A stretch of 64,000 nt of DNA, from contig JBAZLL010000005.1 in the NCBI GenBank assembly GCA_041650255.1, positions 153 through 64,152 of the forward strand, in the 5' to 3' direction. The position numbers and the translations under genes are program-made. Origin of the DNA: Candidatus Micrarchaeia archaeon. GTDB taxonomy: Archaea; Micrarchaeota; Micrarchaeia; Anstonellales; Anstonellaceae. The notes under the pieces were generated by a model, which ran no database searches, was not told the origin of the DNA, and saw nothing but the letters and a program-made list of their open reading frames with translations. Shown piece by piece: positions 5,649-56,415 of the stretch. The stretch's first letter is position 1; the number at the start of each line of letters is the position of its first letter.

Positions 5649-7538
5649 ATGGACAAAAAATCAAAAAAGAAATCCGCCCGTTCAAAAGATGTTGAAGTAA
5701 AAGCGCTTTTCTTAGGTCCCAAATCCGAGAACCGCGATTATTTCAAAAGCACGCTGGATTTTCTGATGGACGAGCACATGCACTGGCGCAGGGATTTTCA
5801 TCCCGAAGACCGCGAAATCTCGTCAAAGGATGAAATGCGCGCCAAGAATTATCAAAAGACACTGGACAAGTCAACCGAGGTTCTGTCCGACCTTTCCGCA
5901 AAACTTAAGGAAACTTCAATGCCATGGTTTTCTGCCCGCTATCTTGGGCACATGAATTCGGATACGCTAATGGTAGCCAATCTTGCATACATGGCTGCGC
6001 TTTTATACAATCCCAACAATGTGGCGTACGAAGCATCCACTGCCACCACTCCAATGGAGATAGAAGTGGGAAAAGATTTTGCCACCATGCTCGGCTTTGA
6101 CCAAAAAACTTCATGGGGGCACATCACCACCGATGGCACCATCGCCAATTACGAAGGGCTTTGGATGGCACGCAATCTCAAATCATTTCCGCTTGCTGTG
6201 AAAAAAGTCAAACCCTCTTTGGTAAAAGGAATGAGTGATTGGCAGCTTCTCAACATGCCTGTGAAAAAGGCGCTTGACCTTGTCGACAAGGTGAAAAAAT
6301 CCGGCTGTTTTGAAAAAGTGCGCAACGAAACCGTGCGAGGCACCGGAGTTGGCGAGGGAAAGCTTGGAGTGGTGCTCGTTCCGCAATCCAAACATTACTC
6401 GTGGGTAAAAGCCGCGGACATTCTCGGTATCGGAAATCGGAATTTTATAGAGGTGCAGGTGGACGAGCATTTTCGCATGGACATTGGTGCACTCAAAAAA
6501 GAAATTGATTCTCACATTGCAAAAAAAATTCCCATAATGGCAGTGGTGGGAGTAGTAGGTACAACCGAAGAAGGCGCAATAGACAAAATCGCGGAAATAT
6601 CCAAATTGCGCAGTCAATATGAAAAGAGAGGAATCTCTTTCTATTTTCATGTGGATGCGGCGTACGGCGGCTATTCCCGCGCGCTTTTTCTTGACGAGAA
6701 AAGCCGCTTCATGAATTATGATGTGCTGAAAAAGCGCCTGTTCACGGACAAAGTTTTTGTTGGAAATCACACATACCCCAACAAGGAAATTTACGACTCA
6801 TACAAATCAATTCCAAATGCGGACTCCATTACAATTGATCCTCACAAAATGGGCTACATACCTTATGCTGCCGGAGGCATTGCAATCAAGGACCGGCGCA
6901 TACTTGATTTGATTTCCTATTTCGCGGCATACGTATTTGAATCCGGAAAGGATTCGCCGGTGCTTCTTGGCTCGTATATAATGGAGGGTTCTAAAGCCGG
7001 TGCAACTGCCGCCGCTGTTTGGGCAAGTCATCGAACAATCCCTCTCAACATAACTGGTTATGGAGAGATAATTGGCAGAAGCATAGAAGCCGCGCAAATG
7101 TTTACGCGTTCGCTTGAGTCAACCAAAATCCTCAAGGTAAAAGGCAGGGAATTTATCGTGCAACCGCTTGTCAAGACTCCCGACTTTAACATAATCTGCA
7201 TGGCATTTAATGAGAAGGGCAATACGAACCTTGAGAAAATGAACCGCTTTAATTCGCGCATCTATACCGAGGCGTCATATCAAAGCGGTCCGGTTTATAG
7301 AAATGACTGGATAACTTCAAACACCGAACTTGCGCGGGAAGATTACGGGGATGCACCAAGGGAATTTGTCAAGCGGATGGGAATACCCCAAAAGGAATGG
7401 GATCGGGTGGGAAAAGTGCGCGTGTTGCGCGTTTGCATGCTCAATCCCTTCATCTCCAACTTCCAAAACCACCACGACCTCTGGCAGGGCTTTTTGAAAA
7501 TACTTGAGGAAAAGATTGAGGGCGCAATGGACAAATAA
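5649..7538 (+). CDS. tdc: Pyridoxal-phosphate-dependent tyrosine decarboxylase, long bacterial (Enterococcus TyrDC-like) type
   Basis: About 629 aa. Motifs: WFSARYLGHMNSDTLM, NNVAYEASTATTPMEIEVG, WGHITTDGTIANYEGLWMARN and the PLP-lysine motif DPHKMGYIPYAAGG. I chose ATG 5649 because AGGTGA lies 6 nt upstream. The ORF track offers GTG 5640. Confidence 0.85.
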   Translation: MDKKSKKKSARSKDVEVKALFLGPKSENRDYFKSTLDFLMDEHMHWRRDFHPEDREISSKDEMRAKNYQKTLDKSTEVLSDLSAKLKETSMPWFSARYLGHMNSDTLMVANLAYMAALLYNPNNVAYEASTATTPMEIEVGKDFATMLGFDQKTSWGHITTDGTIANYEGLWMARNLKSFPLAVKKVKPSLVKGMSDWQLLNMPVKKALDLVDKVKKSGCFEKVRNETVRGTGVGEGKLGVVLVPQSKHYSWVKAADILGIGNRNFIEVQVDEHFRMDIGALKKEIDSHIAKKIPIMAVVGVVGTTEEGAIDKIAEISKLRSQYEKRGISFYFHVDAAYGGYSRALFLDEKSRFMNYDVLKKRLFTDKVFVGNHTYPNKEIYDSYKSIPNADSITIDPHKMGYIPYAAGGIAIKDRRILDLISYFAAYVFESGKDSPVLLGSYIMEGSKAGATAAAVWASHRTIPLNITGYGEIIGRSIEAAQMFTRSLESTKILKVKGREFIVQPLVKTPDFNIICMAFNEKGNTNLEKMNRFNSRIYTEASYQSGPVYRNDWITSNTELAREDYGDAPREFVKRMGIPQKEWDRVGKVRVLRVCMLNPFISNFQNHHDLWQGFLKILEEKIEGAMDK

Positions 7539-7560
7539 TATTTTTTTAATGTTTTTGCAC

Positions 7561-7578
7561 GCGCCACTTTTTTGGCGC
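7561..7578. terminator. Short hairpin with a T-rich loop between convergent genes (possible bidirectional terminator)
   Basis: GCGCCA-CTTTTT-TGGCGC, flanked by T runs, lying between the stops of 5649..7538(+) and 7602..8369(-). Confidence 0.3.
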
Positions 7579-7601
7579 AAATATTTTCCATGTTGCTAGG
7601 G

Positions 7602-8369
7602 TTAAATTGATTTTTTGTGCCCCATGAATGATTCAAATTGTCGGACTGATTCGTGTGTGGGTCTGTCAAACACCTCGAATATCATCGGTCCGCAAATGTT
7701 TGCAGCTTCCATCTGCCCGACCAGGCGCTTCCAGTTAATTTGTCCAGCCCCGATTGCAATGTGGTCGTTCTTCCCGTCATTGTCGTGGATGTGCATTGCG
7801 CATATGCGGTCGCTCAGATGTTTGAATGAGGAATAAATGTCCCACGAAAAGGCTGCATGACCTGTGTCAAAACAGACTCTCAAACGCGGGTCGGAAATTT
7901 CGGCAAATAAAACATCAAAATCAGAAAGTTCCCCTCCCAATCTGTTTTTCTCTGATACTGACGAATTGGGCTTGGTGTTTTCAATAGCCAGAGCGAACTC
8001 TCCTTTCTGCTCAAGGACCGAGCGCACAAAGCACGCGGCATTTTTCAGGTGAGATGCTCTGTCTCCCGACACGAAATGCCCTAAGTGCATGGTAAGATGA
8101 GTACCATTAACTGCCATCAGAGTTAGCGCCGCCCGCTTAGCGTATTCAATGTCTTTTTGTTTGCATTCAGCCGGATTGAATGTCCCTTTCCATGGTAGAT
8201 GGAAGCTGATGCCCAATCCAGAGGAAACCAAAAGCGGAGTCAATCTCTCCACTTCATGCAAAGGCACGCGGGTAAGGTCAATTTCCATGTGCGGGATGCC
8301 GCTGCTTCGGCAGTATTTGATGCTCGGGTCAATGTTCTCAAAGCACAGCATTCCAAATCCAAAACTCAT
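7602..8369 (-). CDS. Sugar phosphate isomerase/epimerase (xylose-isomerase-like TIM barrel, AP-endonuclease-2 fold)
   Basis: 255 aa. Carries the pattern of metal-binding His/Asp/Glu typical of this fold (FHLPW, LAIEN, CFDTGHA, MHIHDNDG). Confidence 0.65.
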   Translation of the reverse strand: MSFGFGMLCFENIDPSIKYCRSSGIPHMEIDLTRVPLHEVERLTPLLVSSGLGISFHLPWKGTFNPAECKQKDIEYAKRAALTLMAVNGTHLTMHLGHFVSGDRASHLKNAACFVRSVLEQKGEFALAIENTKPNSSVSEKNRLGGELSDFDVLFAEISDPRLRVCFDTGHAAFSWDIYSSFKHLSDRICAMHIHDNDGKNDHIAIGAGQINWKRLVGQMEAANICGPMIFEVFDRPTHESVRQFESFMGHKKSI

Positions 8370-8553
8370 AGGAATCTATATCCAATACGCCGGGGTTGTT
8401 TTTATCTCTGCTCTGAGCCGATTTAAAGTGGAAACAATTTGCTTCAGCATAACCTTCTTTAATATCTCTCTCGCTAAATAAATTCAAGGGGTCGTTCCAC
8501 AACCCCGTGCAGGTGTTCAATGCTAACGCCTGCATAATATAATGTGGAAGCAC

Positions 8554-8730
8554 GGGGTCGTGGCGTAAGCTGGTAGCGCGGCAGGCTCCAGGTGGCCCCT
8601 TTTCTTTCTTTGATAAAGAAAGAAAAGGCCCCAGGGTTCAAAAGAAAGAAACTCTGGACTTTCATCACGAAAGAAAGGCAAAAGGGCAATAAGAAACCTG
8701 CATGTTAGGGTTCAAATCCCTACGATCCCA
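8554..8730 (+). tRNA. tRNA-Trp (anticodon CCA) interrupted by a 104-nt intron at the canonical 37/38 position (intron 8592..8695)
   Basis: Folded by hand. Acceptor stem GGGGTCG/CGATCCC (one G-U pair). D arm GCGT-AAGCTGGTA-GCGC. Anticodon stem GCAGG (8581-8585)/CCTGC (8697-8701). Loop CTCCAG + A, with CCA at 8588-8590. T arm TAGGG-TTCAAAT-CCCTA. Discriminator A8730, and no encoded CCA end. Mature length 73 nt. Confidence 0.85.
8592..8695 (+). other. tRNA-Trp intron containing a 14-bp polypyrimidine/polypurine hairpin (8598..8628)
   Basis: CCTTTTCTTTCTTT-GAT-AAAGAAAGAAAAGG. I found no RUGAUGA/CUGA box pair on the sense strand and could not draw a canonical bulge-helix-bulge by eye. Confidence 0.7.
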
Positions 8731-12669: not shown

Positions 12670-13638
12670 CTAGTCCCTCACGTCCTTTTTTGTAAGATTG
12701 ATAAAAACATCTTCAAGAGAAGGTTCGGCCGTTCGCAGTTCTTTCACTTTCACATGCTTTTTTGCAAGATAATTGGAAAGTGTGAGTAGTGCCGCCTTTT
12801 CCATATTTTTCATGCTTATTTCAATTTTGTTTCCTTTCACAGTTATCGTATCTATCTTTAGAAACTCCTTTATCTCTTCAGCCAATTTGTGTGCAGGTTC
12901 ATCAGTTTCAATTTCTATCCTATGATTTCCGCCGTGTTTGCGCTTTAGCTCCTGCGGCGTTCCTTCCGCAATGATATGCCCTTTATCCATAATTGCGATG
13001 CGCTGGCAAAGCTTGTCCGCTTCTTCCATATCGTGTGTGGTGTAAACAATCGTCATTCCGGAATCGTTTAGTCTTTTTGTAAGCTCACGCAAGGCAATTC
13101 TGCTTTGTGGATCAAGCCCAGTTGTGGGCTCATCCATAAATAGTATTTGCGGCTTGTGCAAAAGCCCTGCCGCAACGGACAGTCTTTGTTTCATTCCGCC
13201 TGAAAATCCCTCGGAATAAATATCCTTTTTCTCGTACAATCCGACGGTTTTTAGCAGTTCTTCGCTTCTTTTTATGATTTCTGATTTGTTCATTCCAAAG
13301 AGTTCTCCGATATACCAAAGATTCTCCATCGGGGTAAGCTCTCCAAAGAGTGCAAATTCCTGCGGAACAACGCCTATTTTGCTTCTTACAATTGCCGCGT
13401 CCCTGACAAGGTCGTATCCGGCAATTTTTGCTTTCCCTCCATTTGGTGCAAGAAGAGTCGTGAGCATCTTAATCGTAGTAGTTTTTCCGGCGCCGTTTGG
13501 ACCCAAAAAACCGAAGAGTTCTCCCTTTTTTATCTTAAGCTCAAGTGAGTTGACCGCTGTAAAACTGCCAAATTTCTTTGTAAGTCCCGCGCATTCAACG
13601 TCAAGTTCTTCGTTCGTCATGGCAATTCCTCTAGGCAT
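12670..13638 (-). CDS. ABC transporter ATP-binding protein (DrrA/CcmA-like, ABC-2 exporter type)
   Basis: Walker A GPNGAGKTT, signature FSGGMKQRL, Walker B ILFMDEPTTGLD, H-loop TTHDMEEA. MTNEEL (13620) is an alternative start. Confidence 0.9.
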   Translation of the reverse strand: MPRGIAMTNEELDVECAGLTKKFGSFTAVNSLELKIKKGELFGFLGPNGAGKTTTIKMLTTLLAPNGGKAKIAGYDLVRDAAIVRSKIGVVPQEFALFGELTPMENLWYIGELFGMNKSEIIKRSEELLKTVGLYEKKDIYSEGFSGGMKQRLSVAAGLLHKPQILFMDEPTTGLDPQSRIALRELTKRLNDSGMTIVYTTHDMEEADKLCQRIAIMDKGHIIAEGTPQELKRKHGGNHRIEIETDEPAHKLAEEIKEFLKIDTITVKGNKIEISMKNMEKAALLTLSNYLAKKHVKVKELRTAEPSLEDVFINLTKKDVRD

Positions 13639-43240: not shown

Positions 43241-44350
43241 ATGGACAAGCACGCGAAAGAAAAATTGGAAAACGAATATCTTAGGCTCAAGTCGTTGGAA
43301 AAAACTTTTATCGGCTATCCCTGCGATGCCCAGTTTGATTATTCCCACCTATACAAGTTCTTAAAATTTCCAATGAACAACGTCGGCGACCCATTTGAGA
43401 AATCCACCTATCGCCTGCAAACCAAGAATTTTGAAATTGAAGTGCTGGATTTTTTTGCAAAATTATTGCATATCAAAAAAGACAAATATTGGGGCTACAT
43501 TACAAATGGCGGCACGGAAGGCAATCTCTACGGTCTTTATGCCGCCAGAGAATCCATGCCAAATGCCCGCGTATTCTATTCCAAGCATACTCATTATAGC
43601 ATCCGCAAAAATATTCACATATTGCGCATGAGCGGATGCGAACTGCAAGCGGATTCAAACGGGGAAATGGATTATAATAATTTTGAAAAAACTCTCTGTG
43701 CATCCGACAAGAAAAACGGCGTTATAATTATAGCAAACATCGGCACCACAATGACTGGGGCAATAGATAATGTGGATACGATTGTGCGCATCCTCAAAAA
43801 GCACAAAATAAAATATTATATTCACGCGGACGCCGCCCTCTACGGAATGGTACTGCCATTTTGTTCCGATGTAAAATTTGACTTTCAAACAGGAATAAAC
43901 AGCATCGCAATCAGCGGGCACAAATTCCTCGGCTCGCCCATTCCATGCGGAATTGTGCTGGCGCGAAAGGATGTTGCGATTTGCCTTCGCAAATACATTG
44001 AATATATAGACGCGCACGACTCCACTCTTTCCGGCTCGCGGGATGCATTTACGCCGCTGATTCTCTGGTATAGAATAAAGACAATTGGATTGAGCGGATT
44101 TTCAAAACAGGTGAAACATTGCAATATGCTTGCAGATTATTTGACCGACGAACTTGAGAAAATCGGATGGCCAAACGTTGGAAAAAGCTACGTTACCGTC
44201 CGCTTTAGCAGACCATCAGATCATCTGGTGAGTAAATGGGAGCTTGCGGCAAACAAGGATATGGCTCATGTTGTATGTATGCCGCATGAGAGCAAGGCAC
44301 AGCTTGCAAAATTTGTGCAGGATATGAAAAAAGAAATAATCAGAAAGTAA
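43241..44350 (+). CDS. hdc: Pyridoxal-phosphate-dependent histidine decarboxylase (group II, Gram-negative HDC-like)
   Basis: 369 aa. IGYPCDAQFDYS, WGYITNGGTEGNLYG, ANIGTTMTGAIDN, HADAAL.GM.LPF, and the PLP-lysine motif SGHKFLGSPIPCGIVLARK are collinear with bacterial HDC. Confidence 0.85.
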   Translation: MDKHAKEKLENEYLRLKSLEKTFIGYPCDAQFDYSHLYKFLKFPMNNVGDPFEKSTYRLQTKNFEIEVLDFFAKLLHIKKDKYWGYITNGGTEGNLYGLYAARESMPNARVFYSKHTHYSIRKNIHILRMSGCELQADSNGEMDYNNFEKTLCASDKKNGVIIIANIGTTMTGAIDNVDTIVRILKKHKIKYYIHADAALYGMVLPFCSDVKFDFQTGINSIAISGHKFLGSPIPCGIVLARKDVAICLRKYIEYIDAHDSTLSGSRDAFTPLILWYRIKTIGLSGFSKQVKHCNMLADYLTDELEKIGWPNVGKSYVTVRFSRPSDHLVSKWELAANKDMAHVVCMPHESKAQLAKFVQDMKKEIIRK

Positions 44351-44448
44351 AATAATTAAAAAATAAGATAACTAAAAACTAATTGAAAAATAAAAATAAC
44401 TAAAAAATAAAAAATAGTTAAAATAAAATAATTAAAAAGAAAAAATAA

Positions 44449-46272
44449 CTACTTGCCCATCGGCGTTCCGTACTTTTGTATATTGGTCTGCATTTGCGGG
44501 CTCAACTGCTTTACAAGCTCAACATTGTACGCGCCGGACGGCGAAGGTTCTATACTGACATTAAATATCTCCCTAGCCGCGACTGCATAAGTGCGTGCGT
44601 TGGCAATCAGCGAATCGTTTCTGAGTGCCTGGTCAACATTGTTTGCAAATATCGAAATCGTATTATCGCTGTTGCGAACGATTTGGAATGTGCGGAACTG
44701 CTGAGGAAACTCCCTTAACGATGAGGTTTCAACTTCCCAGAATCCGAGTTCCGGGCGATTCGGGTCCGGTGATTTTAGCGCCGTAACTGTATTGCCGTGC
44801 CGATGCCCTGCAACCACCAAAATCAGGTTCGGGTATGTATGAAATTTGGCAATCAGATCGCTTTCAGATACTGCCGACTTCGGGTCCCACACCATCAAAG
44901 AATCAAGGCCGGAATCGCTAATTTTGGCGCTTATCGGTATGTGTGTGGCGATAATCATAAGTTTATTTTGTGCCTGCCCCTGGTCAAGCTCTTTTACCAG
45001 CCAGTCATATCTTTCCTGATCAATGGAACCATGTCCCATATTGGTCTCGCCGTCAGACTCATTGCCTATTTGAGTGTCATCAAGCACAATAACTTTGATT
45101 GGCACATCAGACTTTGGTTCAAAAGAATAGCTGGCAAATCCCCTCATCGCATTCGTTTGATTGAATCCGTGTCCCACTGGATTTGAAGTGGTATTGAAAA
45201 ATTCGCCCATCCACTCACTTTTGGAAATAAAATGTCTGTTAGAATCTGCAGGTGTAGTCGGAGCAGTATCAAATTCTGCAACCGGTCCCGCACCTATAAT
45301 ATTTCCATATTGCGTTCTGCCATCAATCGCGCCCATGTAGAAACCGCGACTTTTTATGCCGATTTTATTAGTGAATATATTTCCCTGATTGAGTATAGTG
45401 TCGCCCACCATCGAGCTTTTGACATATTCATCCGGCATAAACATGCCCATCCAAAAATGGTCATGGTTGCCGAGAGTCTGATACCAGTTAATGGACTTAT
45501 CCAGTCCAGCCGCTTTGTATTCATCCTGATAATCGTTAAGCGGTCCGGGAACCGGATCATTTCTTACTCCCGAATCCGGAATTATATTTTTGCCGTCCAG
45601 AACATCGATAAACCATCTTAGTTCATTGTACTGTCCGCTGTTAATATCATCGCCAAGAGAGATGCCAAAGTCAAACGGATTTTGTTTGTGAAGTGCGTTT
45701 ATCGTCTGAATTGTCGCATCAAGCATTTGAGTTGTGTATAACATTGCCGGAGAATATCCTGAAATTATACCCCATCTGTATCCGTAATATATCGCCTCTG
45801 CCGGAGATTCTTTATCCGTAATATGAATATCGCTGATGGTAAAGAAATTCAGAAGTTTTGCAGTGTTTGTTGCCGATGTTTTGTTATATGTTGCGGGCAT
45901 GATATCTAATCTTTTTTCATATCCAAGTCCCGGTTCATATTTCCAAACACCATATCCATACTCTGAAAAGTTGGAAACATCATAAGCGTGAATACTGGGC
46001 GAACTTGAAGGCACAGAAACCGGAACAATCACCCGTTCAACAGTTGTGGCAACGTCCGAACTTATCGGATAGCTCGCCGAGGGCGCAACCAAATTGGGTT
46101 GTATTTGGTAATTTGTCAAAGGTGCATTTGCAACCACCTTAGAATCTGTCGGAGCACCGACTTTAGCCGATTGCGGAATGTAACCTGCAAAAATAATCAA
46201 TGCAAAAAGTAAGACTGCAAAAATCAAAAGCGTGTTTTTTACTTCACTGCCCTTATGTTTAGTTCGTTTCAT
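44449..46272 (-). CDS. Membrane-anchored/secreted metallophosphoesterase (calcineurin-like)
   Basis: 607 aa. N-terminal TM helix. ISDIHITD, GDDINSG, LGNHDHFW, ATHIP and AGHRHGN reproduce the metallophosphoesterase motif series D-x-H / GD / GNH / H / GH-x-H. Confidence 0.75.
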   Translation of the reverse strand: MKRTKHKGSEVKNTLLIFAVLLFALIIFAGYIPQSAKVGAPTDSKVVANAPLTNYQIQPNLVAPSASYPISSDVATTVERVIVPVSVPSSSPSIHAYDVSNFSEYGYGVWKYEPGLGYEKRLDIMPATYNKTSATNTAKLLNFFTISDIHITDKESPAEAIYYGYRWGIISGYSPAMLYTTQMLDATIQTINALHKQNPFDFGISLGDDINSGQYNELRWFIDVLDGKNIIPDSGVRNDPVPGPLNDYQDEYKAAGLDKSINWYQTLGNHDHFWMGMFMPDEYVKSSMVGDTILNQGNIFTNKIGIKSRGFYMGAIDGRTQYGNIIGAGPVAEFDTAPTTPADSNRHFISKSEWMGEFFNTTSNPVGHGFNQTNAMRGFASYSFEPKSDVPIKVIVLDDTQIGNESDGETNMGHGSIDQERYDWLVKELDQGQAQNKLMIIATHIPISAKISDSGLDSLMVWDPKSAVSESDLIAKFHTYPNLILVVAGHRHGNTVTALKSPDPNRPELGFWEVETSSLREFPQQFRTFQIVRNSDNTISIFANNVDQALRNDSLIANARTYAVAAREIFNVSIEPSPSGAYNVELVKQLSPQMQTNIQKYGTPMGK

Positions 46273-48382: not shown

Positions 48383-51118
48383 ATGGCTGAGGCAACCTTG
48401 GATTTGAGCGAGCGAGATACACGCAATGAGGTTATTGACCCCCAGCTCAAAAAAGTGGGCTGGATCAAGCACTATTTGAAAGAGGAAGTCAATCCGGTCA
48501 AGTCCGACATCAAGAACAAGCAGTATGAGCTCTATTCCGGCAAGGTCGAAAGAGGCGTCGATATGTTCATCGACTACCTTCTTCTTTCCGAGGATTACGC
48601 CCCTCTCGCCATCATCGAAGCCAAGAGATTCTGCAAAGACCCCGAAGCAGGCCGAATCCAGGCCAGAAGCTATTCCAAGGTCATTGAATCCAAAATCGGC
48701 TATAAAGTCCCCATCTTCCTGACCAACGGCCATATCTGGCAGTTCATCGACCAGGACGGCATAGAACGCCGTGTAAGCGGGGTATTCTCGCAAGAAGACC
48801 TCAAAAGACGGCACGAGAATTATCTCAACCGCAGGCTTCCCTCTCTAGTCAAGATAAGTGGCAAGATTGTTGACCGCCCGCGCAGCATGGCGATTGTCAA
48901 GGCGCTTAGCGAGCATTTCTCTAACGGGCACCGCTCCGCCCTCATCCAAATGGCCACCGGCACCGGCAAAACCCGTGTTTCCATGGCCACCATCGATGTT
49001 CTCGCAAACGCCAATTATGTCCGAAACGTCCTATTTATCGCTGATCGTATCGCTCTAGCGAACCAAGCCAAATCAGACGGCTTCAAGCGGTTTTTCACCG
49101 AGCCCGTCGCAGATTTGAGGGACGGAATCAGCAAGACCTCCCGCTTCTATATAACCACGGTTCAGACCCTAACTTCCGGCAAGCGCTCCAAGACCTACGA
49201 GAAATTCAGCCCTGCCTATTTCGACTTGATTGTATTCGATGAAGCGCACCGCTCCCTCTACGACAGAAACAATATTCTCTTCAAGTACTTCGATTCCATC
49301 AAAATCGGCCTCACCGCTACCCCAACGCAGGAGGATAGCCGCGACACTTTCGACCTGTTCGAATGTGATGTAAGCAAGCCCACCGTGGAATACTCCTATG
49401 ACGAAGCCGTCCATGATGGAATCTTGGTCCCTTATCGCGGCGAGACGATTGAAACCAAAGTCCTAGCCTTGGGTATCGAAGGCAAGGAGCTCTCCCCGGA
49501 GCTCAAAGACCTAATCCGAAAACAGGAACTTGATCCAGAGGGCGTAGCCTTCAGTGGCGGAGAATTCGACCGCGTGTTCATGGATGACAAGACCAATGAG
49601 CTGGTCATCCGCAGGTTCATGGAGCGGTGCTACAAATCCGACGAGGGCAAGCCCGCTAAAACCATCTTCTTCTGCGCCAGCCAGAAGCACGCCAAGCACC
49701 TCAAGAAAGTTTTCACTAAAATCTATCCTTCACTTGGAAACGATGTGCAGGTTATCACATCCGACATGCACCGCGCCGAGGATGAGGTGCGCCGTTTCAA
49801 GAACGATTCCGAGCCCCGCATTGCTTTATCCGTCGGCATGTTGGATACCGGTATCGACGTGCCCGAAGTCTGCAACCTCGTCTTTGTCAAGCCTGTCTAT
49901 TCCACCGTCCGCTTCTGGCAGATGGTGGGCCGAGGAACTCGGAATCAAAACTCTTGCCGTCATCCCGACTGGCTACAGGACAAGGAGAAGAAGGACTTCC
50001 TTATCCTCGACTTCAAGATTGGTGGTCATTCCAATATCGAGTATCACAAATTCCGCTCCTCCAAAGAGAGCTCCAGAATGGATGTCATGACGCGCATCTT
50101 CATCAACCGCGTCAAGCTTCTCAACAAGACGTTGGACAAAACCCAGAAGGCCATCATCATCAAGAAAATCATGGAGGACATCGAGAACCTCAACAAGGAC
50201 TCTTTCATCGTCCGTGAGAAACTGGCAATTATCAAGAAACTGGAATCCGACTCGTTCAACCTTGAGAAATACATCGAGGAACTGAACAAGGATATTTCGC
50301 CCCTGATGATGCTCAATTCGGGCATCAATTCCTATACTGCCTCCTTCATCCTCAATGCCGAGAAGCTGTTCGGCCTCATCCTTGACAATCGGCGGGACGC
50401 CATCGAGGAAATCCGCGCATCAACCTTAATGCCCATGGTCGAGAACGTCTTGCGCCGCACTAACCTGACCGAAGTCAAAGAAAAGCTCAATTCATTAAAA
50501 TTAACCCTGCAAGATAAGTTCTGGAACGAGCTAACCTTCGAGAGCGTCGAATTCCTCATCCGCGAGATTGCGCCCCTCATGAAATATTACTCGCCCGACC
50601 CACGCAAGGTCATCCAGATAGATGCTTTTGACATTATCACTGATATTCAGGAGTTCAAGAAAGAGGTCAAGGAAGACGAGAAGCTCAAAGAGCTTCTTGA
50701 AAAGAACCCCTTGGTGCGCAAGCTACGTGATGGCGACGGCCTAACCATGGATGAGCTGCGTCAGCTTGTGGAGATTTTCCAGAAAATCCGCCCCGAGATA
50801 ACAATCCCCAACATCCAGCAGAGCACGGGCGTCGATTTCATGGTCTTTTTGCATGAAACGATTGGGATGCGCAGCACCTATGACCCCCGCGAGCGCATTG
50901 AGCGGCAGTTCGACGATTTCATCATCAAGAACAGCCATTACAATTCCAAACAGCTTGAATTCTTGCACTTGCTCAAAAGGGTGTTTGTGGAGCAAAAGCA
51001 TCTCGAAATTCAGGATTTAGGCACCTCGCCCCTATCTGACCAACGCCCCTTGGATCTCTTCGAGATGGAACAGCTTGAGATGATTGTCAAGAGCTGCCAG
51101 AAGATAAAATTCAAATAA
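48383..51118 (+). CDS. hsdR: Type I restriction enzyme R subunit (HsdR)
   Basis: 911 aa. N-terminal nuclease region ERDTRNEVIDPQLKKVGW...DMFIDYLLL...LAIIEAKR (D...E-x-K). Helicase motif I MATGTGKT, motif II FDEAHRS, motif VI QMVGRGTR. The C-terminal ...SKQLEFLHLLKRVFVEQKHLEIQDL resembles the EcoEI_R_C domain. Confidence 0.9.
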   Translation: MAEATLDLSERDTRNEVIDPQLKKVGWIKHYLKEEVNPVKSDIKNKQYELYSGKVERGVDMFIDYLLLSEDYAPLAIIEAKRFCKDPEAGRIQARSYSKVIESKIGYKVPIFLTNGHIWQFIDQDGIERRVSGVFSQEDLKRRHENYLNRRLPSLVKISGKIVDRPRSMAIVKALSEHFSNGHRSALIQMATGTGKTRVSMATIDVLANANYVRNVLFIADRIALANQAKSDGFKRFFTEPVADLRDGISKTSRFYITTVQTLTSGKRSKTYEKFSPAYFDLIVFDEAHRSLYDRNNILFKYFDSIKIGLTATPTQEDSRDTFDLFECDVSKPTVEYSYDEAVHDGILVPYRGETIETKVLALGIEGKELSPELKDLIRKQELDPEGVAFSGGEFDRVFMDDKTNELVIRRFMERCYKSDEGKPAKTIFFCASQKHAKHLKKVFTKIYPSLGNDVQVITSDMHRAEDEVRRFKNDSEPRIALSVGMLDTGIDVPEVCNLVFVKPVYSTVRFWQMVGRGTRNQNSCRHPDWLQDKEKKDFLILDFKIGGHSNIEYHKFRSSKESSRMDVMTRIFINRVKLLNKTLDKTQKAIIIKKIMEDIENLNKDSFIVREKLAIIKKLESDSFNLEKYIEELNKDISPLMMLNSGINSYTASFILNAEKLFGLILDNRRDAIEEIRASTLMPMVENVLRRTNLTEVKEKLNSLKLTLQDKFWNELTFESVEFLIREIAPLMKYYSPDPRKVIQIDAFDIITDIQEFKKEVKEDEKLKELLEKNPLVRKLRDGDGLTMDELRQLVEIFQKIRPEITIPNIQQSTGVDFMVFLHETIGMRSTYDPRERIERQFDDFIIKNSHYNSKQLEFLHLLKRVFVEQKHLEIQDLGTSPLSDQRPLDLFEMEQLEMIVKSCQKIKFK

Positions 51119-51120
51119 AA

Positions 51121-51366
51121 TTAAGGAGTATAATGTGCCAGTCGTTCATTATAGCAATAAGCGAGTTTATTTTCTCCTTCAAATACTTGCTGATTTCTGC
51201 GATGTCGACCACTCGTTCCAAGAAGTCTTTGTGGCATTGATTTCTCACAAACAATAACTAATTTATCGCCGCGAATCTCGGTTTTTCCAGAAAACGAGAC
51301 GATATCTTCAAGTAAAATGTTTGAACTCATCAACAACGCCTTCCTTTTATGTCGATGTAGCAACAC
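51121..51366 (-). CDS. Hypothetical small protein (probably 69 aa from MSSNILLED...)
   Basis: ORF-track entry. An internal ATG is preceded by a GGAAGG-like sequence. No motif recognised. The 120 bp upstream (51367-51487) has only short broken frames. Confidence 0.3.
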   Translation of the reverse strand: MLLHRHKRKALLMSSNILLEDIVSFSGKTEIRGDKLVIVCEKSMPQRLLGTSGRHRRNQQVFEGENKLAYCYNERLAHYTP

Positions 51367-51487
51367 GCACCGTTTGAGCCCTGCGCCATAGAATAAGCAA
51401 AATGAACTTCTCGCTTGTCAGGTAATGACATACGTTGTACTAGTTTACGCGCCACGCAGACTATTCGTTTGCTCTTGATGCCATCAA

Positions 51488-51847
51488 CTACCATCTGAGT
51501 TTACCCTCAGTCTGAAGTTTTGTAAATATTTTTAACACAACTTCGATGTCGAGATTGCAAGCCTCTGCTACATCACTGGCGTATGCCTCTCGATTTTTAT
51601 CCAAATAAGTTAAAACTTTTTTATATGCATCTTCAAATGGAACTTCCTCTACATAGATTATTTTTGCAGATGCCTGCAATTCTTTCACTTCGTGTTCGAG
51701 AGTTTCTACTTTTTCACAAAGCGTACTTATTGCAGCTGTCTTATGAAGCAGTTCGGAATCGAATTTTTCCTGAAGTTTCACGATTTGCTTAGCGATTACC
51801 GCCTCGATATCTAGATTCTCTATACATACGGTTTGCGTCGATTCCAT
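51488..51847 (-). CDS. Coiled-coil plus C-terminal winged-helix (wHTH) DNA-binding protein
   Basis: 119 aa. The heptad-like N-terminal half (IAKQIVKLQEKFDSELL...VETLEHEVKELQ) is followed by YKKVLTYLDKNREAYASDVAEACNLDIEVVLKIFTKLQTEGKL, a typical wHTH layout. Its start abuts the stop of 51849..52148. Confidence 0.55.
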   Translation of the reverse strand: MESTQTVCIENLDIEAVIAKQIVKLQEKFDSELLHKTAAISTLCEKVETLEHEVKELQASAKIIYVEEVPFEDAYKKVLTYLDKNREAYASDVAEACNLDIEVVLKIFTKLQTEGKLRW

Positions 51848-51848
51848 A

Positions 51849-52148
51849 CTATCCCTTCTCCAACAAATCGATAAACTGTTTTAGCTGAGAAACGTCTTTT
51901 TGGTTGATTGTACTAATATAAACTATCTTTTCTTTAATGTCAGTTGCGTTTTCAATAGATAATGATATTAGGGACGCGTTGATTACTTTTCCCTCGTCAT
52001 TCTTATTTTCTTTAATCAAAATAATTGAAATTGGTGAAAAACCCAATGAATTGTATTTTTCATTAAAAGTATCCTTTAGCAAATTCTTTAATTCAAAATT
52101 CGATAGTTTGTATTTAACAGGCTCCGCGCTTGTTACAGGTTCAGCCAT
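51849..52148 (-). CDS. Hypothetical protein (99 aa)
   Basis: ORF with protein-like composition and first gene of a minus-strand pair. No motif recognised. Confidence 0.5.
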   Translation of the reverse strand: MAEPVTSAEPVKYKLSNFELKNLLKDTFNEKYNSLGFSPISIILIKENKNDEGKVINASLISLSIENATDIKEKIVYISTINQKDVSQLKQFIDLLEKG

Positions 52149-52194
52149 ATAATCGCCAGATTTGTGATTCTCGCATATTTTTTAAAACATTCGT

Positions 52195-52233
52195 GCATCG
52201 TTCGGCTTTGCGTCAAGTCCTCTCGAACGATGC
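52195..52233. promoter_or_regulatory. 10-bp perfect inverted repeat GCATCGTTCG-N19-CGAACGATGC in a 290-bp divergent intergenic region (candidate operator or structured leader)
   Basis: Read directly. A third half-site-like copy, GTCGAACGAAAGC, lies at ~52246-52258, and GCTTTGCG/CGCAAAG complementarity is nearby. Confidence 0.45.
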
Positions 52234-52437
52234 AAATGTTGCCCCGTCGAACGAAAGCGCAAAGTCGTATTGTTTGAACTCTCCTAGTGGTGTTCGACCG
52301 CAGTCTCAAACCTTCGGAGTTGTTCCAGTTAAGCTACGGCAACTGGGTTTTATAATGTTTAACCGAACTATTTCTTATATTTGGTTTACCTTTTCCAACC
52401 ATTAGCTATATTAACCCTTTATCTCTAAGTCTTATTT

Positions 52438-52812
52438 ATGGACACACACAAATCCATGGCCACGAAGCTGCCAATCAAGGAATACACTTGGATTCTGGAT
52501 TACTGCAACCGGAAGAAAATAACGCCCTCCGCGCTGATCAAGGAGCTTCTTCTGGAAGAAATCGGGCCTTCTCCTTCTCACGTTGCTGGCCGGAACCTCA
52601 TCAGCTATGACAAGAAAAAGGACTCCTTTGTCTGGAGCGTCGAGCTGGACAATGGGAAGAAGGCCGTGGCAGCGGAAAACCTGTCTGCTGAGTTTCTTAA
52701 AGACCTGAACCACGGTATTTCAGATGCTTTGGTTTCTCGGGAGGAAATGATCGGTCGGAAGAAGAAAGGCTCGGTGGCAGTGCCGAAGCGGTTGATACGA
52801 GGGAAACGATGA
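52438..52812 (+). CDS. Ribbon-helix-helix (CopG/Arc-like) protein with an uncharacterised C-terminal extension
   Basis: 124 aa. The N-terminal MATKLPIKEYTWILDYCNRKKITPSALIKELLLEEI fits the beta-strand/helix/helix RHH pattern. Its stop overlaps the next start (ATGA). Confidence 0.55.
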   Translation: MDTHKSMATKLPIKEYTWILDYCNRKKITPSALIKELLLEEIGPSPSHVAGRNLISYDKKKDSFVWSVELDNGKKAVAAENLSAEFLKDLNHGISDALVSREEMIGRKKKGSVAVPKRLIRGKR

Positions 52813-53432
52813 AGAAGGAAGAAGCGATTAAACAATTACAAGACTTCAACAAAGCCGGAGTTGAACTATTTCGATTGAGCTTTGTCAAGAAGATGCAAGA
52901 GCCGAATTGCGGTTACAGTATGAATTTTGAGAAAGGTAAAGGAATAACCTGCATTTTTCGGGGCCCAGATGATGAAGCGGTGAAAGCGTTCTGTAATGAT
53001 TTGCGAAAATTTATCCAAAAAAACGATTACCTTCATTATGGTAATTTAAAGAAAATATATGATTCAGATTTTGTTACGGCAGAAGAACGCGCTTCTTTCT
53101 ATGAAATTCTCAGCCAACTTAAACAGTTCACGGAAACCTCAACAAATCATAGTGTAAATGGAGAGCTAATAACCTACGCGAGAGCTCTGGAGGTTTTTCT
53201 ATATGGAAAAATTTCCCACATGTCAGATCACCATCAAAATCGCAAGACATATGAGAAATGGGAAGGTTTTCCCCCAACCTACGTCTCGCTCAAAAACGAG
53301 TTTATGGTAATTCTATATGAGTACATGCGAGTGTTCATAAATAACTTCATGATTTCCAACAATCGCGTATTGGAACGACTTGGCTATCCTAGGATAGAGA
53401 TAATGGAGGGTGTGAATGAATCTAACAAATAA
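52809..53432 (+). CDS. Hypothetical 207-aa protein embedded upstream of hsdS (no recognisable motif)
   Basis: The ORF overlaps the upstream gene by 4 nt and hsdS by 17 nt, implying co-translation with the R-M specificity and methylase genes. Predicted largely alpha-helical. Confidence 0.55.
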   Translation: MKKEEAIKQLQDFNKAGVELFRLSFVKKMQEPNCGYSMNFEKGKGITCIFRGPDDEAVKAFCNDLRKFIQKNDYLHYGNLKKIYDSDFVTAEERASFYEILSQLKQFTETSTNHSVNGELITYARALEVFLYGKISHMSDHHQNRKTYEKWEGFPPTYVSLKNEFMVILYEYMRVFINNFMISNNRVLERLGYPRIEIMEGVNESNK

Positions 53433-54573
53433 ACATTTGCCAGACGGATGGACGAGCATACGGTTTGAGGATGCCTTCGAGCGCCTGCCCAAGACCAAAA
53501 TAAAGGCGGGTGAGGGGCTTGAACAAGGCAAATACAAATTCTTCACTTCTAGCGACGAGCAGAAGAAATTCCTTGATAGCTACGAATTCGATGGCGAGCA
53601 TCTGATTCTCGGAACTGGTGGTGTTGCGAGCATCCATTACTGCAATGAGAAATTTTCGACAAGTACAGATTGTTTTGTCATGAAACTCAAGGCGAAAGAC
53701 ATACTATTGAAATATATCTACTATTTCTTCCGAAGTCGTTTCTACTTGTTGGAGGAAGGTTTTCGAGGAGCAGGTTTGAAGCATTTATCTCGCCACTACC
53801 TAAACGAAATATCTATCCCATATCCAGAAAGTAAAGAAACTCAGAAGAAAATTATCTCCATCCTTGAGAAGGCAGAATCTCTCAAGACTTCCCGCGAGGA
53901 AGCAGATAAGCTCACGAATGAGTTACTCAAGAGTGTGTTCTGTGAGGTGTTTGGAGATCCGGTGAGGAATGAAAAAGGATGGGAACAATCTGTTTTGAAA
54001 GAAAAATCCGAGATCATTCAGATCGGGCCGTTTGGTACTCAATTGCACGTTGAGGATTATACTACTGGTGGTATCCCGCTAGTGAATCCGATGCACATTA
54101 TAAATAAAAAAATCGTTCCAGATTTCAATTTTACTGTATCTCCTAAGAAATATGACGAGCTATCTAATTATCATATGAAAGTCGGAGACATCATAATGGG
54201 TCGGCGCGGTGAAATGGCCAGGTGCGCATTAGTAACTACAAAAGAAGATGGTTGGCTATGCGGAACCGGCAGTCTGTTCATTAGGCCGAAGAACGACGTT
54301 AATTCTCTATTTCTACTTTTTTGTTTAACTCACGCATCCATGAAAAAAGTTCTCGAGAACAATTCTCAAGGAGTAACGATGAGTAATCTTAATTTATCTA
54401 TTATAAATAATTTAAAAATAATTGTCCCTCCGCGTAAATTGCAAAATAAGTTTGCTGAAATTTCTGAGCGTCTAAATTCGATTAATGAAAAACAGGCAAC
54501 TTCTTCAGACAAAATCGACCAGCTCATTTATACATTAATGCAAAAAGCATTTAGCGGCGAGCTATTTGGATGA
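53416..54573 (+). CDS. hsdS: Type I restriction-modification specificity subunit (HsdS), two target-recognition domains
   Basis: 385 aa with a GGAGGGTG ribosome-binding site. LPDGWTSIRFEDAF opens TRD1. The central conserved helix is KKIISILEKAESLKTSREEADKLTNELLKSVF. TRD2 follows, then a C-terminal conserved helix ending ...LMQKAFSGELF. Confidence 0.9.
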   Translation: MNLTNKHLPDGWTSIRFEDAFERLPKTKIKAGEGLEQGKYKFFTSSDEQKKFLDSYEFDGEHLILGTGGVASIHYCNEKFSTSTDCFVMKLKAKDILLKYIYYFFRSRFYLLEEGFRGAGLKHLSRHYLNEISIPYPESKETQKKIISILEKAESLKTSREEADKLTNELLKSVFCEVFGDPVRNEKGWEQSVLKEKSEIIQIGPFGTQLHVEDYTTGGIPLVNPMHIINKKIVPDFNFTVSPKKYDELSNYHMKVGDIIMGRRGEMARCALVTTKEDGWLCGTGSLFIRPKNDVNSLFLLFCLTHASMKKVLENNSQGVTMSNLNLSIINNLKIIVPPRKLQNKFAEISERLNSINEKQATSSDKIDQLIYTLMQKAFSGELFG

Positions 54574-54917
54574 TGATTATGGCTAAAGATAAGACTGGGT
54601 TGGAAGAAAGTCTAAACATGACTGAGATGCTGCTGGTTTACATCTCAAAAAATGAACCAATGGATAGAACTGGTTTACTAAAATTAGTAGAAGGCGCAAA
54701 AATAGATCCCGATAAATTACTTCTAAATTTAGGTCGGTTAAAAGATGCGAACCTAATAGACTATGAAGTGATACTTGTTTTTGGGGAAGATTTTCCTAGA
54801 ATCTACAATGTCAAACTCACTTACAACGGACTAAAAGAAATTGATTCTCTTTTGAAAAGAAAGAATATCGTTAAAGGAATGGAATTGAATTTTGGTTTAT
54901 TGAAAATCATGATTTAG
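54570..54917 (+). CDS. Hypothetical 115-aa protein between hsdS and hsdM (possible YjcQ-like winged helix)
   Basis: Its start overlaps the hsdS stop (ATGATG/TGA). LLNLGRLKDANLIDYEV...VKLTYNGLKEI resembles the recognition helix plus wing of small wHTH proteins. This is a weak call. Confidence 0.45.
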   Translation: MMIMAKDKTGLEESLNMTEMLLVYISKNEPMDRTGLLKLVEGAKIDPDKLLLNLGRLKDANLIDYEVILVFGEDFPRIYNVKLTYNGLKEIDSLLKRKNIVKGMELNFGLLKIMI

Positions 54918-54927
54918 GTGGTTCTCT

Positions 54928-56415
54928 ATGCTTGACTCCGAACTAAAATCAAAAATAAATAAGCTCTGGGAAAAACTCTGGAGCTCAGGTATCTCAAATC
55001 CCTTGAGCGCTATCGAGCAAATCTCATACCTTCTTTACATGAAGCATCTAGAGGACGAAGACATCTTACACCAGCAAAACGCTAAACTGACCAAAGAAAA
55101 ATATTCCTCCATCTTCGATAAAAACAATGATTGCAGATGGAGCGTTTGGACTGAATATCAAGCCGATAAAATATTAGAGCACGTCCGAACCAAGGTATTC
55201 CCATTCCTCAAAACCTTGGGGGAAAAGGACTCCATGTACAACCAGTACATGCAGGACGCGGTTTTCATCATCCCAACCCCCTCCGTTCTAATTGAAGCGG
55301 TCAAAATCATCAATGAACTGAAAATCAAGGAGCAGAACCGGGACACCCAAGGGGACATCTACGAGTACCTTCTTTCAGAGCTCACCACAGCCGGTAAGAA
55401 TGGCCAATTCCGCACTCCGAGGCACATCATCCGCATGATGGTCGAACTGATTGGCCCAAAATATGGGGAAACTATCTGTGATCCGGCTTGTGGAACCTCT
55501 GGCTTTTTGGTCAATGCCTATGAGCATATCCTCAAAACCAACACTTCCAAAGACCTCATCAAGCGCGATGAGGCCGGGAACGAATATGGCTTTAGCGGGG
55601 AAAAACTCAATTCCAATCAGTTGGAGATTCTCAGGAAAGAAACCCTCTATGGCTTTGACAATGACCCAACTATGGTAAGAATTGCCCTGATGAATCTTAT
55701 GATGCACGGCATCACGAGGCCTAATATCCAACAGATGAATACCATCTCGACGCGGTTCTCGCAAGCCAACTACTATGACATCATCCTGGCAAATCCGCCC
55801 TTCAAGGGTAGTGTGGATGAATCGGAGCTAAGCGACCAATTCACCATCAAGACCAAAAAGACCGAGATTCTATTCTTGGAACTCATGCACCGGCTTCTCC
55901 ATAATGGCGGCAAGTGCGCCGTTATCGTACCGGACGGCATTGTTTTCGGCAGCTCCAACGCCCATCAGGATATACGCCAGCTTCTGCTTGAAAAGTGCCG
56001 CCTAGATGCGGTAATCTCCATGCCTTCGGGCGTCTTCAAGCCTTATGCTGGAGTTTCTACTGCCGTGCTGTTTTTCACTAAAGGCGAACCTACCAAAAAA
56101 GTCTGGTTCTATGATATGGAATCCGACGGTTTCAGCCTAGACGACAAACGGACGTTTATCGATGGCAAGGGGGATATTCCTGATATTATCGAGAAATTCA
56201 AGAAAAGGGAAAAAGAGAAATACGAAGACCGAAAGGCCAAATGCTTCTTTATCCCGTTTGAGGAGATTAAGGCAAATGGCTATGATCTGAGTATTTCCAA
56301 GTACAAGGAGATTGTTCACGAAGAGGTCAATTACGAGAAGCCTCACGTGATCAAAAAGAAGATTTTAGACCTTGAGGAGAGCATTATCAAGACGCTCAAG
56401 GAGATTGAGGTCTAA
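54928..56415 (+). CDS. hsdM: Type I restriction-modification N6-adenine DNA methyltransferase subunit (HsdM)
   Basis: 495 aa with a TAGGTGG ribosome-binding site. HsdM_N-like N-terminus (LWEKLWSSGISNPLSAIEQISYLLYMKHLED), SAM motif I DPACGTSGFL and catalytic motif IV ANPPFKG. Confidence 0.95.
   Translation: MLDSELKSKINKLWEKLWSSGISNPLSAIEQISYLLYMKHLEDEDILHQQNAKLTKEKYSSIFDKNNDCRWSVWTEYQADKILEHVRTKVFPFLKTLGEKDSMYNQYMQDAVFIIPTPSVLIEAVKIINELKIKEQNRDTQGDIYEYLLSELTTAGKNGQFRTPRHIIRMMVELIGPKYGETICDPACGTSGFLVNAYEHILKTNTSKDLIKRDEAGNEYGFSGEKLNSNQLEILRKETLYGFDNDPTMVRIALMNLMMHGITRPNIQQMNTISTRFSQANYYDIILANPPFKGSVDESELSDQFTIKTKKTEILFLELMHRLLHNGGKCAVIVPDGIVFGSSNAHQDIRQLLLEKCRLDAVISMPSGVFKPYAGVSTAVLFFTKGEPTKKVWFYDMESDGFSLDDKRTFIDGKGDIPDIIEKFKKREKEKYEDRKAKCFFIPFEEIKANGYDLSISKYKEIVHEEVNYEKPHVIKKKILDLEESIIKTLKEIEV

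Follow-up and report, generated by a model that had tools for sequence, protein, structure and literature searches.

The subject of this analysis is a chain of five plus-strand open reading frames (ORFs) at 52438-56415 of a 64,000-nucleotide stretch of DNA (the window) from a Candidatus Micrarchaeia archaeon (contig JBAZLL010000005.1 of assembly GCA_041650255.1; genome of 1.05 Mb in 22 contigs). The chain contains the specificity (hsdS) and modification (hsdM) genes of a type I restriction-modification (R-M) system together with three additional genes, and these three are separate things with different evolutionary behaviours. A reading of the three as one module does not survive comparison among loci: the 124-amino-acid (aa) gene that heads the chain is a core gene, the 207-aa gene that follows it (hereafter X) is linked to hsdS, and the 115-aa gene between hsdS and hsdM is rare cargo. 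The explanation that we consider on balance probable, taken as a whole, is that of a mosaic EcoAI-like type I system with a ribbon-helix-helix (RHH) core repressor, an X protein tied to HsdS, and a rare 115-aa cargo gene.

The genes of the chain adjoin one another closely. The 124-aa gene overlaps X by ATGA, X overlaps hsdS by 17 nt, hsdS overlaps the 115-aa gene again by ATGA, and 10 nt separate the 115-aa gene from hsdM; if the 115-aa gene were to start at one of its alternative ATGs (54573 or 54579), its distance from hsdS would still be no more than 5 nt. Related loci of other genomes and metagenomes show these tight junctions again, and the chained arrangement is not a product of chance. 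The nearest of these loci come from metagenome-assembled genomes of Woesearchaeota and Nanoarchaeota. From their sequence, the five genes are predicted to form one operon with its own promoter at ~52383-52437. An earlier, sequence-only reading had described both the chain of overlapping or near-abutting stops and starts and a type I S/M operon with embedded genes, and in both respects it stands (Table 1). It had overlooked an EcoAI/EcoEI-type hsdR that belongs to the same system and that matches the NCBIfam model restrict_EcoAI at E = 3e-76, under the equivalog cut-off; in sister loci, too, hsdR lies upstream of the 124-aa gene. Pfam and NCBIfam comparisons thus find in the window locus everything by which a type I R-M system is recognized, i.e., an HsdR with an SF2 motor, an N-terminal nuclease region and an EcoEI_R_C tail, an HsdS with two target-recognition domains, and an HsdM with its HsdM_N and N6_Mtase domains.

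Comparison with the closest sister locus (L010) exposes the mosaic structure. The HsdR proteins of the two loci are 94% identical and their HsdM proteins 93.5% (the window HsdM is also 79% identical to that of a further sister, L047). At the DNA level, the two loci are alike in hsdR (83%) and the 124-aa gene (75%), and similarity breaks off precisely where the 124-aa gene ends. No similarity is seen over X and nearly all of hsdS; it picks up again in the final ~40 nt of hsdS, continues into the beginning of the 115-aa gene (70%), and is complete over hsdM (82%). Where the window has X, L010 has an unrelated 85-aa gene, and before its hsdM stand a 111-aa homologue of the 115-aa protein and a 109-aa membrane protein. 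Boundaries in base composition coincide with gene ends across 48383-56415: GC content at third codon positions (GC3) is 0.69 in hsdR, 0.63 in the 124-aa gene and 0.60 in hsdM, and falls to 0.40 in X, 0.42 in hsdS and 0.33 in the 115-aa gene; total GC content is 0.50 in hsdR, 0.51 in the 124-aa gene, 0.38 in X and 0.32, the operon minimum, in the 115-aa gene. With the divergent two-gene cassette that lies upstream of the chain (GC 0.31-0.38), X, hsdS and the 115-aa gene span GC3 values of 0.33-0.53 and GC values of 0.31-0.40. X, hsdS and the 115-aa gene are a low-GC block that has been swapped into a high-GC backbone.

The leader gene and its predicted promoter

The 124-aa gene heads an hsdS-hsdM operon in ten distinct loci (the window, L005, L008, L010, L012, L014, L020, L031, L033 and L047), at protein identities of 27-92%. 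A database search returned four homologues at 62-92% identity, and locus comparisons added further ones at 27-52%. L047, which lies in a single-contig genome of 777 kb, consists of hsdR, the 124-aa gene, hsdS and hsdM, with no cargo. Because the gene comes first in all ten loci, including this cargo-free one, it belongs to the backbone of the R-M family: it is the core fourth gene of an EcoAI-like type I family.

The N-terminus of the encoded protein is probably RHH-like, as the sequence-only reading had proposed, on evidence that is consistent but sub-threshold throughout. Members of its family match four RHH families of Pfam, namely DUF6290 (E = 6e-5), RHH_1 (E = 7e-4), RepB-RCR_reg and RHH_7, and a profile search of the PDB with the family placed at the top AvtR and SvtR, which are RHH regulators of archaeal viruses, and the RHH domain of PutA, at E-values of 0.1-0.4. 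All of the RHH matches align to residues ~4-50. In an AlphaFold2 model (predicted local distance difference test score, pLDDT, of 73), helices occupy residues 13-25 and 30-42, strands lie within 52-82, and a further helix spans 84-106. The helix pair follows a short extended segment with a conserved K10-L11, a dimer sheet being invisible in the model of a monomer, and is itself followed by a sheet of three strands, then by a long helix and, at the end, by a basic tail that carries a conserved SVxVPK motif. Counting against an RHH assignment, every Pfam match of the family falls under the gathering score, the window protein itself reaches only E = 0.096, and a Foldseek comparison of the whole model with the PDB gave no significant match. 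Neither Pfam nor the PDB profile search returned an HTH (helix-turn-helix) family or structure for this protein.

The sequence in front of the gene points to autoregulation. A GGTTWACC-type repeat lies 51-70 nt upstream of the 124-aa start codon in eight distinct loci (seven scored with the pattern, plus the window, whose variant was read by eye), its two ACC ends being 10-11 bp apart; the pattern has 36 matches in 777 kb overall. In L008 and L047, its place directly before the TATA-like box is taken by other perfect or near-perfect palindromes, as expected if the operator and the 124-aa protein change together. An operator-like repeat or palindrome therefore stands beside a TATA-like box in 10 of the 10 loci that have the gene. 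The motif is retained in loci without X, and in sister loci the TATA-like box is likewise found ~27-30 nt from the ATG. The gene thus combines the two marks of an autoregulator, i.e., first position in the operon and conserved repeated or palindromic sites at its own promoter, and its product is probably an autorepressor of its own S/M operon. We infer that the 124-aa protein binds the repeat or palindrome beside the TATA box and so represses the operon, in which case the dosage of S and M would be set by feedback. The sequence-only reading had left open whether the RHH protein controls an effector encoded by X or the expression of the R-M genes; the second option is the better one.

The palindromes TCTACAaaTGTAGA and GGTATTACAtTGTAATACC were recorded at L047 8750-8803 and L008 4037-4091.

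There is no Shine-Dalgarno motif before the 124-aa gene, and there are Shine-Dalgarno-like motifs before X (GAGG), hsdS (GGAGGGTG) and hsdM (AGGTGG). In archaeal operons, a leaderless first gene and coupled internal genes fit such a pattern of TATA box and Shine-Dalgarno sites. The transcript of the 124-aa gene is predicted, and is probably, leaderless; the operon would then be transcribed from ~52383-52437, with its internal genes translated via their Shine-Dalgarno sites. A scan for sigma-70 promoters and terminators yielded background levels, under a model that is not applicable to archaea.

Protein X and its linkage to hsdS

X belongs to a large family that is undescribed, being absent from Pfam, NCBIfam, PADLOC and PHROGs. 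A word-indexed search with X returned 16 relatives at 40-49% identity, and a profile search of 1.84 billion representatives returned 1074 clusters at E <= 1e-3, 570 of them at E <= 1e-10. Nearly all members are stand-alone proteins of 185-210 aa. X itself matched nothing in those four libraries, sequence and profile searches of the PDB found nothing, and a Pfam scan of 123 family members gave scattered single matches only. An AlphaFold2 model of X (pLDDT 86.6; predicted template modelling score, pTM, 0.81) has an alpha+beta fold with two beta-hairpins and a long C-terminal helix, for which Foldseek found no fold match in the PDB or BFVD (best template modelling score <= 0.34, E > 0.2); the remark of the earlier reading that the 207-aa protein has no recognizable motif is borne out. 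Across the 123 members, whose full alignment was too diverse for use in locus searches, G133 and H137 are invariant, and R66, Q70, D/E73, Y84, Y132, N14 and N184 are conserved at 92-99%. This degree of conservation argues for a defined site rather than a mere scaffold.

Two candidate identities were rejected: that of a DNA mimic, because the isoelectric point (pI) of the family is near neutral, and that of a HEPN protein, because the family lacks an Rx4-6H motif, with 71 residues separating the conserved Arg from the conserved His, and no HEPN fold was matched. Comparison of the family with the 85-aa protein in the first slot of L010, and with the 115-aa protein and its homologue, by hhalign revealed no relation. 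X was not found in IMG/VR viral contigs or in phage records, nor in 40 relatives or 400 sampled genomes of the same phylum, among which sample the HsdM family occurs in only five genomes. Plasmid records contained a single one with a distant member of the X family: WP_338835118.1, annotated as hypothetical, is encoded at 43910-44614 of Bradyrhizobium septentrionale plasmid NZ_CP147712.1 (L040). The plasmid is conjugative, and the gene stands immediately before one for an SOS-response-associated peptidase (SRAP), near a multiubiquitin-ThiF-DUF6527 cluster and an ImmA/HTH pair.

The most consistent feature of X is its position. In 17 of 22 distinct loci, the gene directly downstream of X is hsdS, whose start usually overlaps the stop of X; the 22 are X loci with enough DNA from the subfamily of at least 33% identity within the family of 1074 clusters. 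The sequence-only reading had made recurrence of the inserts beside hsdS in other genomes a test of its proposal, and X passes it strongly. The linkage spans five lineages of X that are no more than 53% identical to each other, and two operon orders, hsdR..X-hsdS..hsdM and hsdM-X-hsdS-hsdR (the latter in L022, L023 and L028). Even where three to five other cargo genes share the slot (L003, L005, L034 and L036), X is the last gene before hsdS, and it never occurs in the hsdS-hsdM slot; an exception to the adjacency is L007, where the order is X, an SduA_C gene, hsdS. In L034, X and HsdS are fused in frame within a single 563-aa reading frame (6992-8683). The X domain of this frame makes up residues ~1-190 and is followed by a full HsdS, on a metagenome contig of 338 kb. 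Finally, the X protein of the window is nearest (47-48% identity) to X proteins of other system types, whereas its HsdM groups with those of the sister operons (64-69%), which suggests that X was placed before hsdS independently.

Our favoured explanation is that X is an accessory protein tied to HsdS and not a partner of the RHH protein. X would travel with hsdS as a low-GC cassette and would be translated just before HsdS. We infer that it docks on HsdS or on the M2S core, where it may act as a latent effector or as a switch that reads the state of the core (compare PrrC with EcoprrI, or RonA with HsdMS), and its conserved Arg, Gln, Asp/Glu, Tyr, His and Asn may form an active or binding site. 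If this is true, X might sense, e.g., that the complex is blocked by a DNA-mimic anti-restriction protein or that its specificity has just been exchanged. The earlier suggestion that the 207-aa protein could be an effector or toxin under the RHH protein is not supported where it pairs the two, since X and the RHH gene assort independently. A bolder version is offered only tentatively, as possible but somewhat unlikely. In it, the X family would be a widespread, new-fold class of R-M accessory proteins (more than 1000 clusters) that dock on HsdS or M2S as latent effectors or switches, and the 124-aa RHH protein would be the first transcriptional regulator to be described as dedicated to a type I R-M system of archaea.

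Several observations weigh against so close a tie between X and HsdS. The 17 linked loci fall mostly into a single clade (X 55-77% identical) and so are not independent, co-divergence of X and HsdS is weak (Mantel r = 0.36, p = 0.012), and the survey of contexts is confined to the subfamily of at least 33% identity. The X::HsdS fusion comes from a single metagenome contig and is possibly due to a one-base assembly error. No signature of a nuclease, a toxin or a transmembrane segment was recognized in X, whose pI is near neutral. There are also X genes that stand elsewhere: between a PD-(D/E)xK gene and KwaA-KwaB with hsdS absent from the vicinity (L001), in a group of small genes close to an IS66 transposase (L018), away from hsdS among neighbours without family identity (L024 and L035), and, in the distant Bradyrhizobium member, on a plasmid island beside the SRAP peptidase. 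Two members of the family are fused to C-terminal tetratricopeptide (TPR) repeats.

Such contexts without hsdS, together with the TPR fusions, fit a self-contained defence protein, and X could be a single-gene defence protein that hitch-hikes with hsdS cassettes, so that its adjacency to hsdS reflects cassette recombination rather than a functional tie. X and hsdS share a low GC content and were swapped as one block; X adjoins Kiwa genes in L001; its plasmid relative keeps company with a ubiquitin-like system as well as the peptidase; the TPR fusions resemble an effector and a sensor in one chain; and genes embedded in type I loci often defend alone (Payne et al., bioRxiv 10.1101/2024.01.29.577857; TgvAB, PMC11411939). 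We nevertheless think this unlikely, though a serious possibility, because five divergent lineages in two operon orders keep X before hsdS and never in the S-M slot, because one X is fused in frame to HsdS, and because PADLOC holds no match. X could also be an establishment or restriction-alleviation factor, since it is linked to hsdS, the gene whose replacement is hazardous, rather than to hsdM or hsdR; such a factor would hold back restriction or promote methylation for as long as the chromosome is unprotected against a new specificity. Type I families rely on restriction alleviation after gaining a new specificity, and Ral of phage modulates type I methylation; X precedes hsdS, with which it is translationally coupled, and the two were exchanged as one block relative to L010. 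This proposal is entirely conjectural, however, X having no homology to Ral or to any alleviation protein; it leaves the Kiwa, plasmid-island and TPR-fusion contexts unexplained, and the sister operons L010, L012, L014 and L047 swap hsdS without X. We regard it as improbable.

The order of the first two genes, an RHH gene and then a larger ORF with an ATGA overlap, had suggested to the sequence-only reading a type II toxin-antitoxin layout, here nested in an R-M operon, and the 124-aa gene does adjoin X in the window and in L008, L020, L031 and L033. Such a pair is nonetheless very improbable: in four loci the 124-aa gene occurs without X, being followed directly by hsdS (L012 and L047) or by the unrelated 85-aa gene (L010 and L014), in at least nine X occurs without the 124-aa gene (L001, L003, L007, L009, L022, L023, L028, L034 and L036), GC content is 0.51 in the one gene and 0.38 in the other, and the operator motif is kept where X is absent. 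An obligate pair was rejected because the genes assort independently and differ in composition. Least probable of the readings weighed here is that the inserts are functionless passengers or mis-called ORFs, e.g., transposase fragments, a result that the earlier reading had named in advance as fatal to its proposal. Although the 115-aa protein has just one homologue, that homologue is 42% identical over its full length and fills the corresponding slot in L010; the families of X and of the 124-aa protein are conserved at full length, have invariant residues and yield models that are confident and moderate, respectively; and family scans revealed no transposase or mobile-element match among the inserts. 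For X and the 124-aa gene, the passenger reading is already refuted.

The 115-aa gene and neighbouring sequences

A search of 5.8 billion proteins with the 115-aa protein returned only itself; its single homologue is the 111-aa protein of L010. The 115-aa protein matched nothing in Pfam, NCBIfam, PADLOC or PHROGs, and the pair had no sequence match in the PDB; its pattern of helices and a hairpin may be compatible with a winged-helix fold. In sister operons, the hsdS-hsdM slot holds HEPN proteins, an M48 peptidase, a zinc-ribbon/HSDR_N-like nuclease, RusA and membrane proteins, and the cargo of the sister loci overall includes HEPN, M48, SduA_C, Abi_C, DUF3800, DUF4145 and RusA proteins. Because the contents of this slot are so varied, the 115-aa gene is best read as a rare, exchangeable cargo of it.

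Between hsdR and the chain lie a 289-bp spacer and the two minus-strand ORFs of the divergent cassette (51488-52148). The position of this cassette is empty in L047, L005, L008, L020 and L033, and L010 has in the same gap a Fic-domain gene (5843-6994, minus strand). The presence of a Fic gene in one locus and of two small genes in the other makes the gap between hsdR and the 124-aa gene a third cargo site. On the 3' side of the chain there is a DUF4209/PDC-S39 pair and then an integrase, which identify the region as a defence island; the mosaic system would thus be housed in an integrase-flanked island.

Table 1. Features of the type I R-M locus in the window
Feature	Position	Strand	Remarks
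hsdR, 911 aa	48383..51118	+	EcoAI/EcoEI-type (type IB-like); Pfam ResIII, EcoEI_R_C, HSDR_N
Divergent two-gene cassette, 119 aa + 99 aa	51488..52148	-	Inserted between hsdR and the S/M operon; only weak family matches
Operator-like repeat GGTTTACC-N4-CCAACC	52383..52400	+	Directly upstream of the TATA-like box
TATA-like box TATATTAA	52407..52414	+	~27 nt upstream of the ATG of the 124-aa gene
124-aa protein	52438..52812	+	pI 9.7; N-terminal domain probably RHH-like, small beta-sheet/helix domain, basic tail
207-aa protein X	52809..53432	+	Member of a large undescribed family
hsdS, 385 aa	53416..54573	+	Pfam Methylase_S (E = 1e-30) in two stretches, i.e., two target-recognition domains
115-aa protein	54570..54917	+	Rare cargo of the hsdS-hsdM slot
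hsdM, 495 aa	54928..56415	+	Pfam N6_Mtase (E = 1e-64), HsdM_N (E = 3e-13)

A non-coding block of ~55 nt at 52281-52335 (CCTAGTGGTGTTCGACCGCAGTCTCAAACCTTCGGAGTTGTTCCAG...) is near-invariant in the window, L012/L013 and L014, where identity among the adjoining 124-aa proteins is no higher than 62-80%. L010 lacks the block, which is found once in the genome, has no Rfam match and folds with z-scores of only -1.1 to -1.6. Its candidate roles are those of a recombination site, a small RNA, or a promoter or leader belonging to the divergent gene. For the 290-bp upstream region as a whole there was no Rfam match and no tRNA, and folding z-scores were -1.1 to -1.9. At 52194-52234, the spacer that separates the S/M operon from the divergent cassette contains a perfect 11-nt inverted repeat, TGCATCGTTCG / CGAACGATGCA with a 19-nt loop, and a repeated TCGAACGA; neither is present in sister loci. 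On the Woesearchaeota contig of L018, a 2.5-kb stretch downstream of an X locus contains three copies of the 18-mer GTTAACCGAAGCAAAACC (at 13358, 14034 and 15885), which is also found at 7415 and 8157 of L029.

Known systems and the significance of the locus

Accessory genes embedded in type I operons and repressors at their head are known themes (PrrC, Ronin, TgvAB, RptR and guilt by embedding), and the locus extends this habit of restriction operons. The nearest counterpart of the leader gene is RptR, a small repressor of 79 aa with an HTH that heads type I RMS islands of Gammaproteobacteria and binds TAGCTA (Zhang et al., NAR 2025, PMC12255303), in operons that carry an embedded DarTG2 (PMC12255303). 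In both cases a small DNA-binding protein, putative here, is encoded by the first gene of a cargo-bearing type I operon and represses, or would repress, its own promoter via short palindromes or repeats that are conserved across genomes. The 124-aa protein differs in being RHH-like, with an additional beta/alpha domain and a basic tail, in being archaeal, and in its GGTTWACC-type motif. C proteins, the HTH autoregulators of type II R-M systems, act at operators that overlap the promoter and control the endonuclease gene. They share with the 124-aa protein the character of a small (putative) autoregulator encoded just upstream of R-M genes; here it is S and M, and not R, that would be controlled, and the fold appears RHH-like. 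By these comparisons, the 124-aa protein appears to be an analogue, and not a homologue, of both RptR and C proteins.

For X, a model is provided by PrrC of the prr locus (EcoprrI), which has an ABC-type ATPase and a nuclease domain and whose gene follows hsdS. PrrC and RloC resemble X, as we picture it, in being the products of accessory genes that occur almost exclusively in type I operons and are functionally tied to the R-M complex. X is unlike PrrC in having neither ATPase nor nuclease domain, in its unmatched fold, and in its place before hsdS; the domains by which PrrC and RloC are recognized were found neither in X (Pfam and NCBIfam) nor in the 123 family members (Pfam). In the Ronin system (Silas et al., bioRxiv 10.1101/2023.04.06.535777), RonA is kept silent by an HsdMS core, and the arrival of an anti-restriction protein ends this silence. 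The RonA of E. coli is a membrane peptide of 61 aa, and Ronin is usually without hsdR (bioRxiv 10.1101/2023.04.06.535777), whereas X is predicted to be a soluble alpha+beta protein of ~190 aa and accompanies a complete R-M system. The linkage to hsdS is alike in the two, and X may be an analogue of RonA at most. With TgvAB and the candidates proposed from guilt by embedding the locus shares variable cargo between hsd genes; it differs from them in that none of the three window proteins has a PADLOC match and in that X is fixed beside hsdS.

Two aspects of the locus are new. One is a fourth core gene in an archaeal type I family, accompanied by a conserved operator-like site, which offers a testable model for the control of S and M in tiny DPANN genomes that lack the classic bacterial routes of control. 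The other is a large family, absent from the libraries searched, with a confidently modelled but unmatched fold and a position before hsdS that is kept across lineages and operon types. If X indeed works via HsdS, it would be a new component of the best-studied class of restriction enzymes, and it would also provide a handle on the safe exchange of specificity cassettes.

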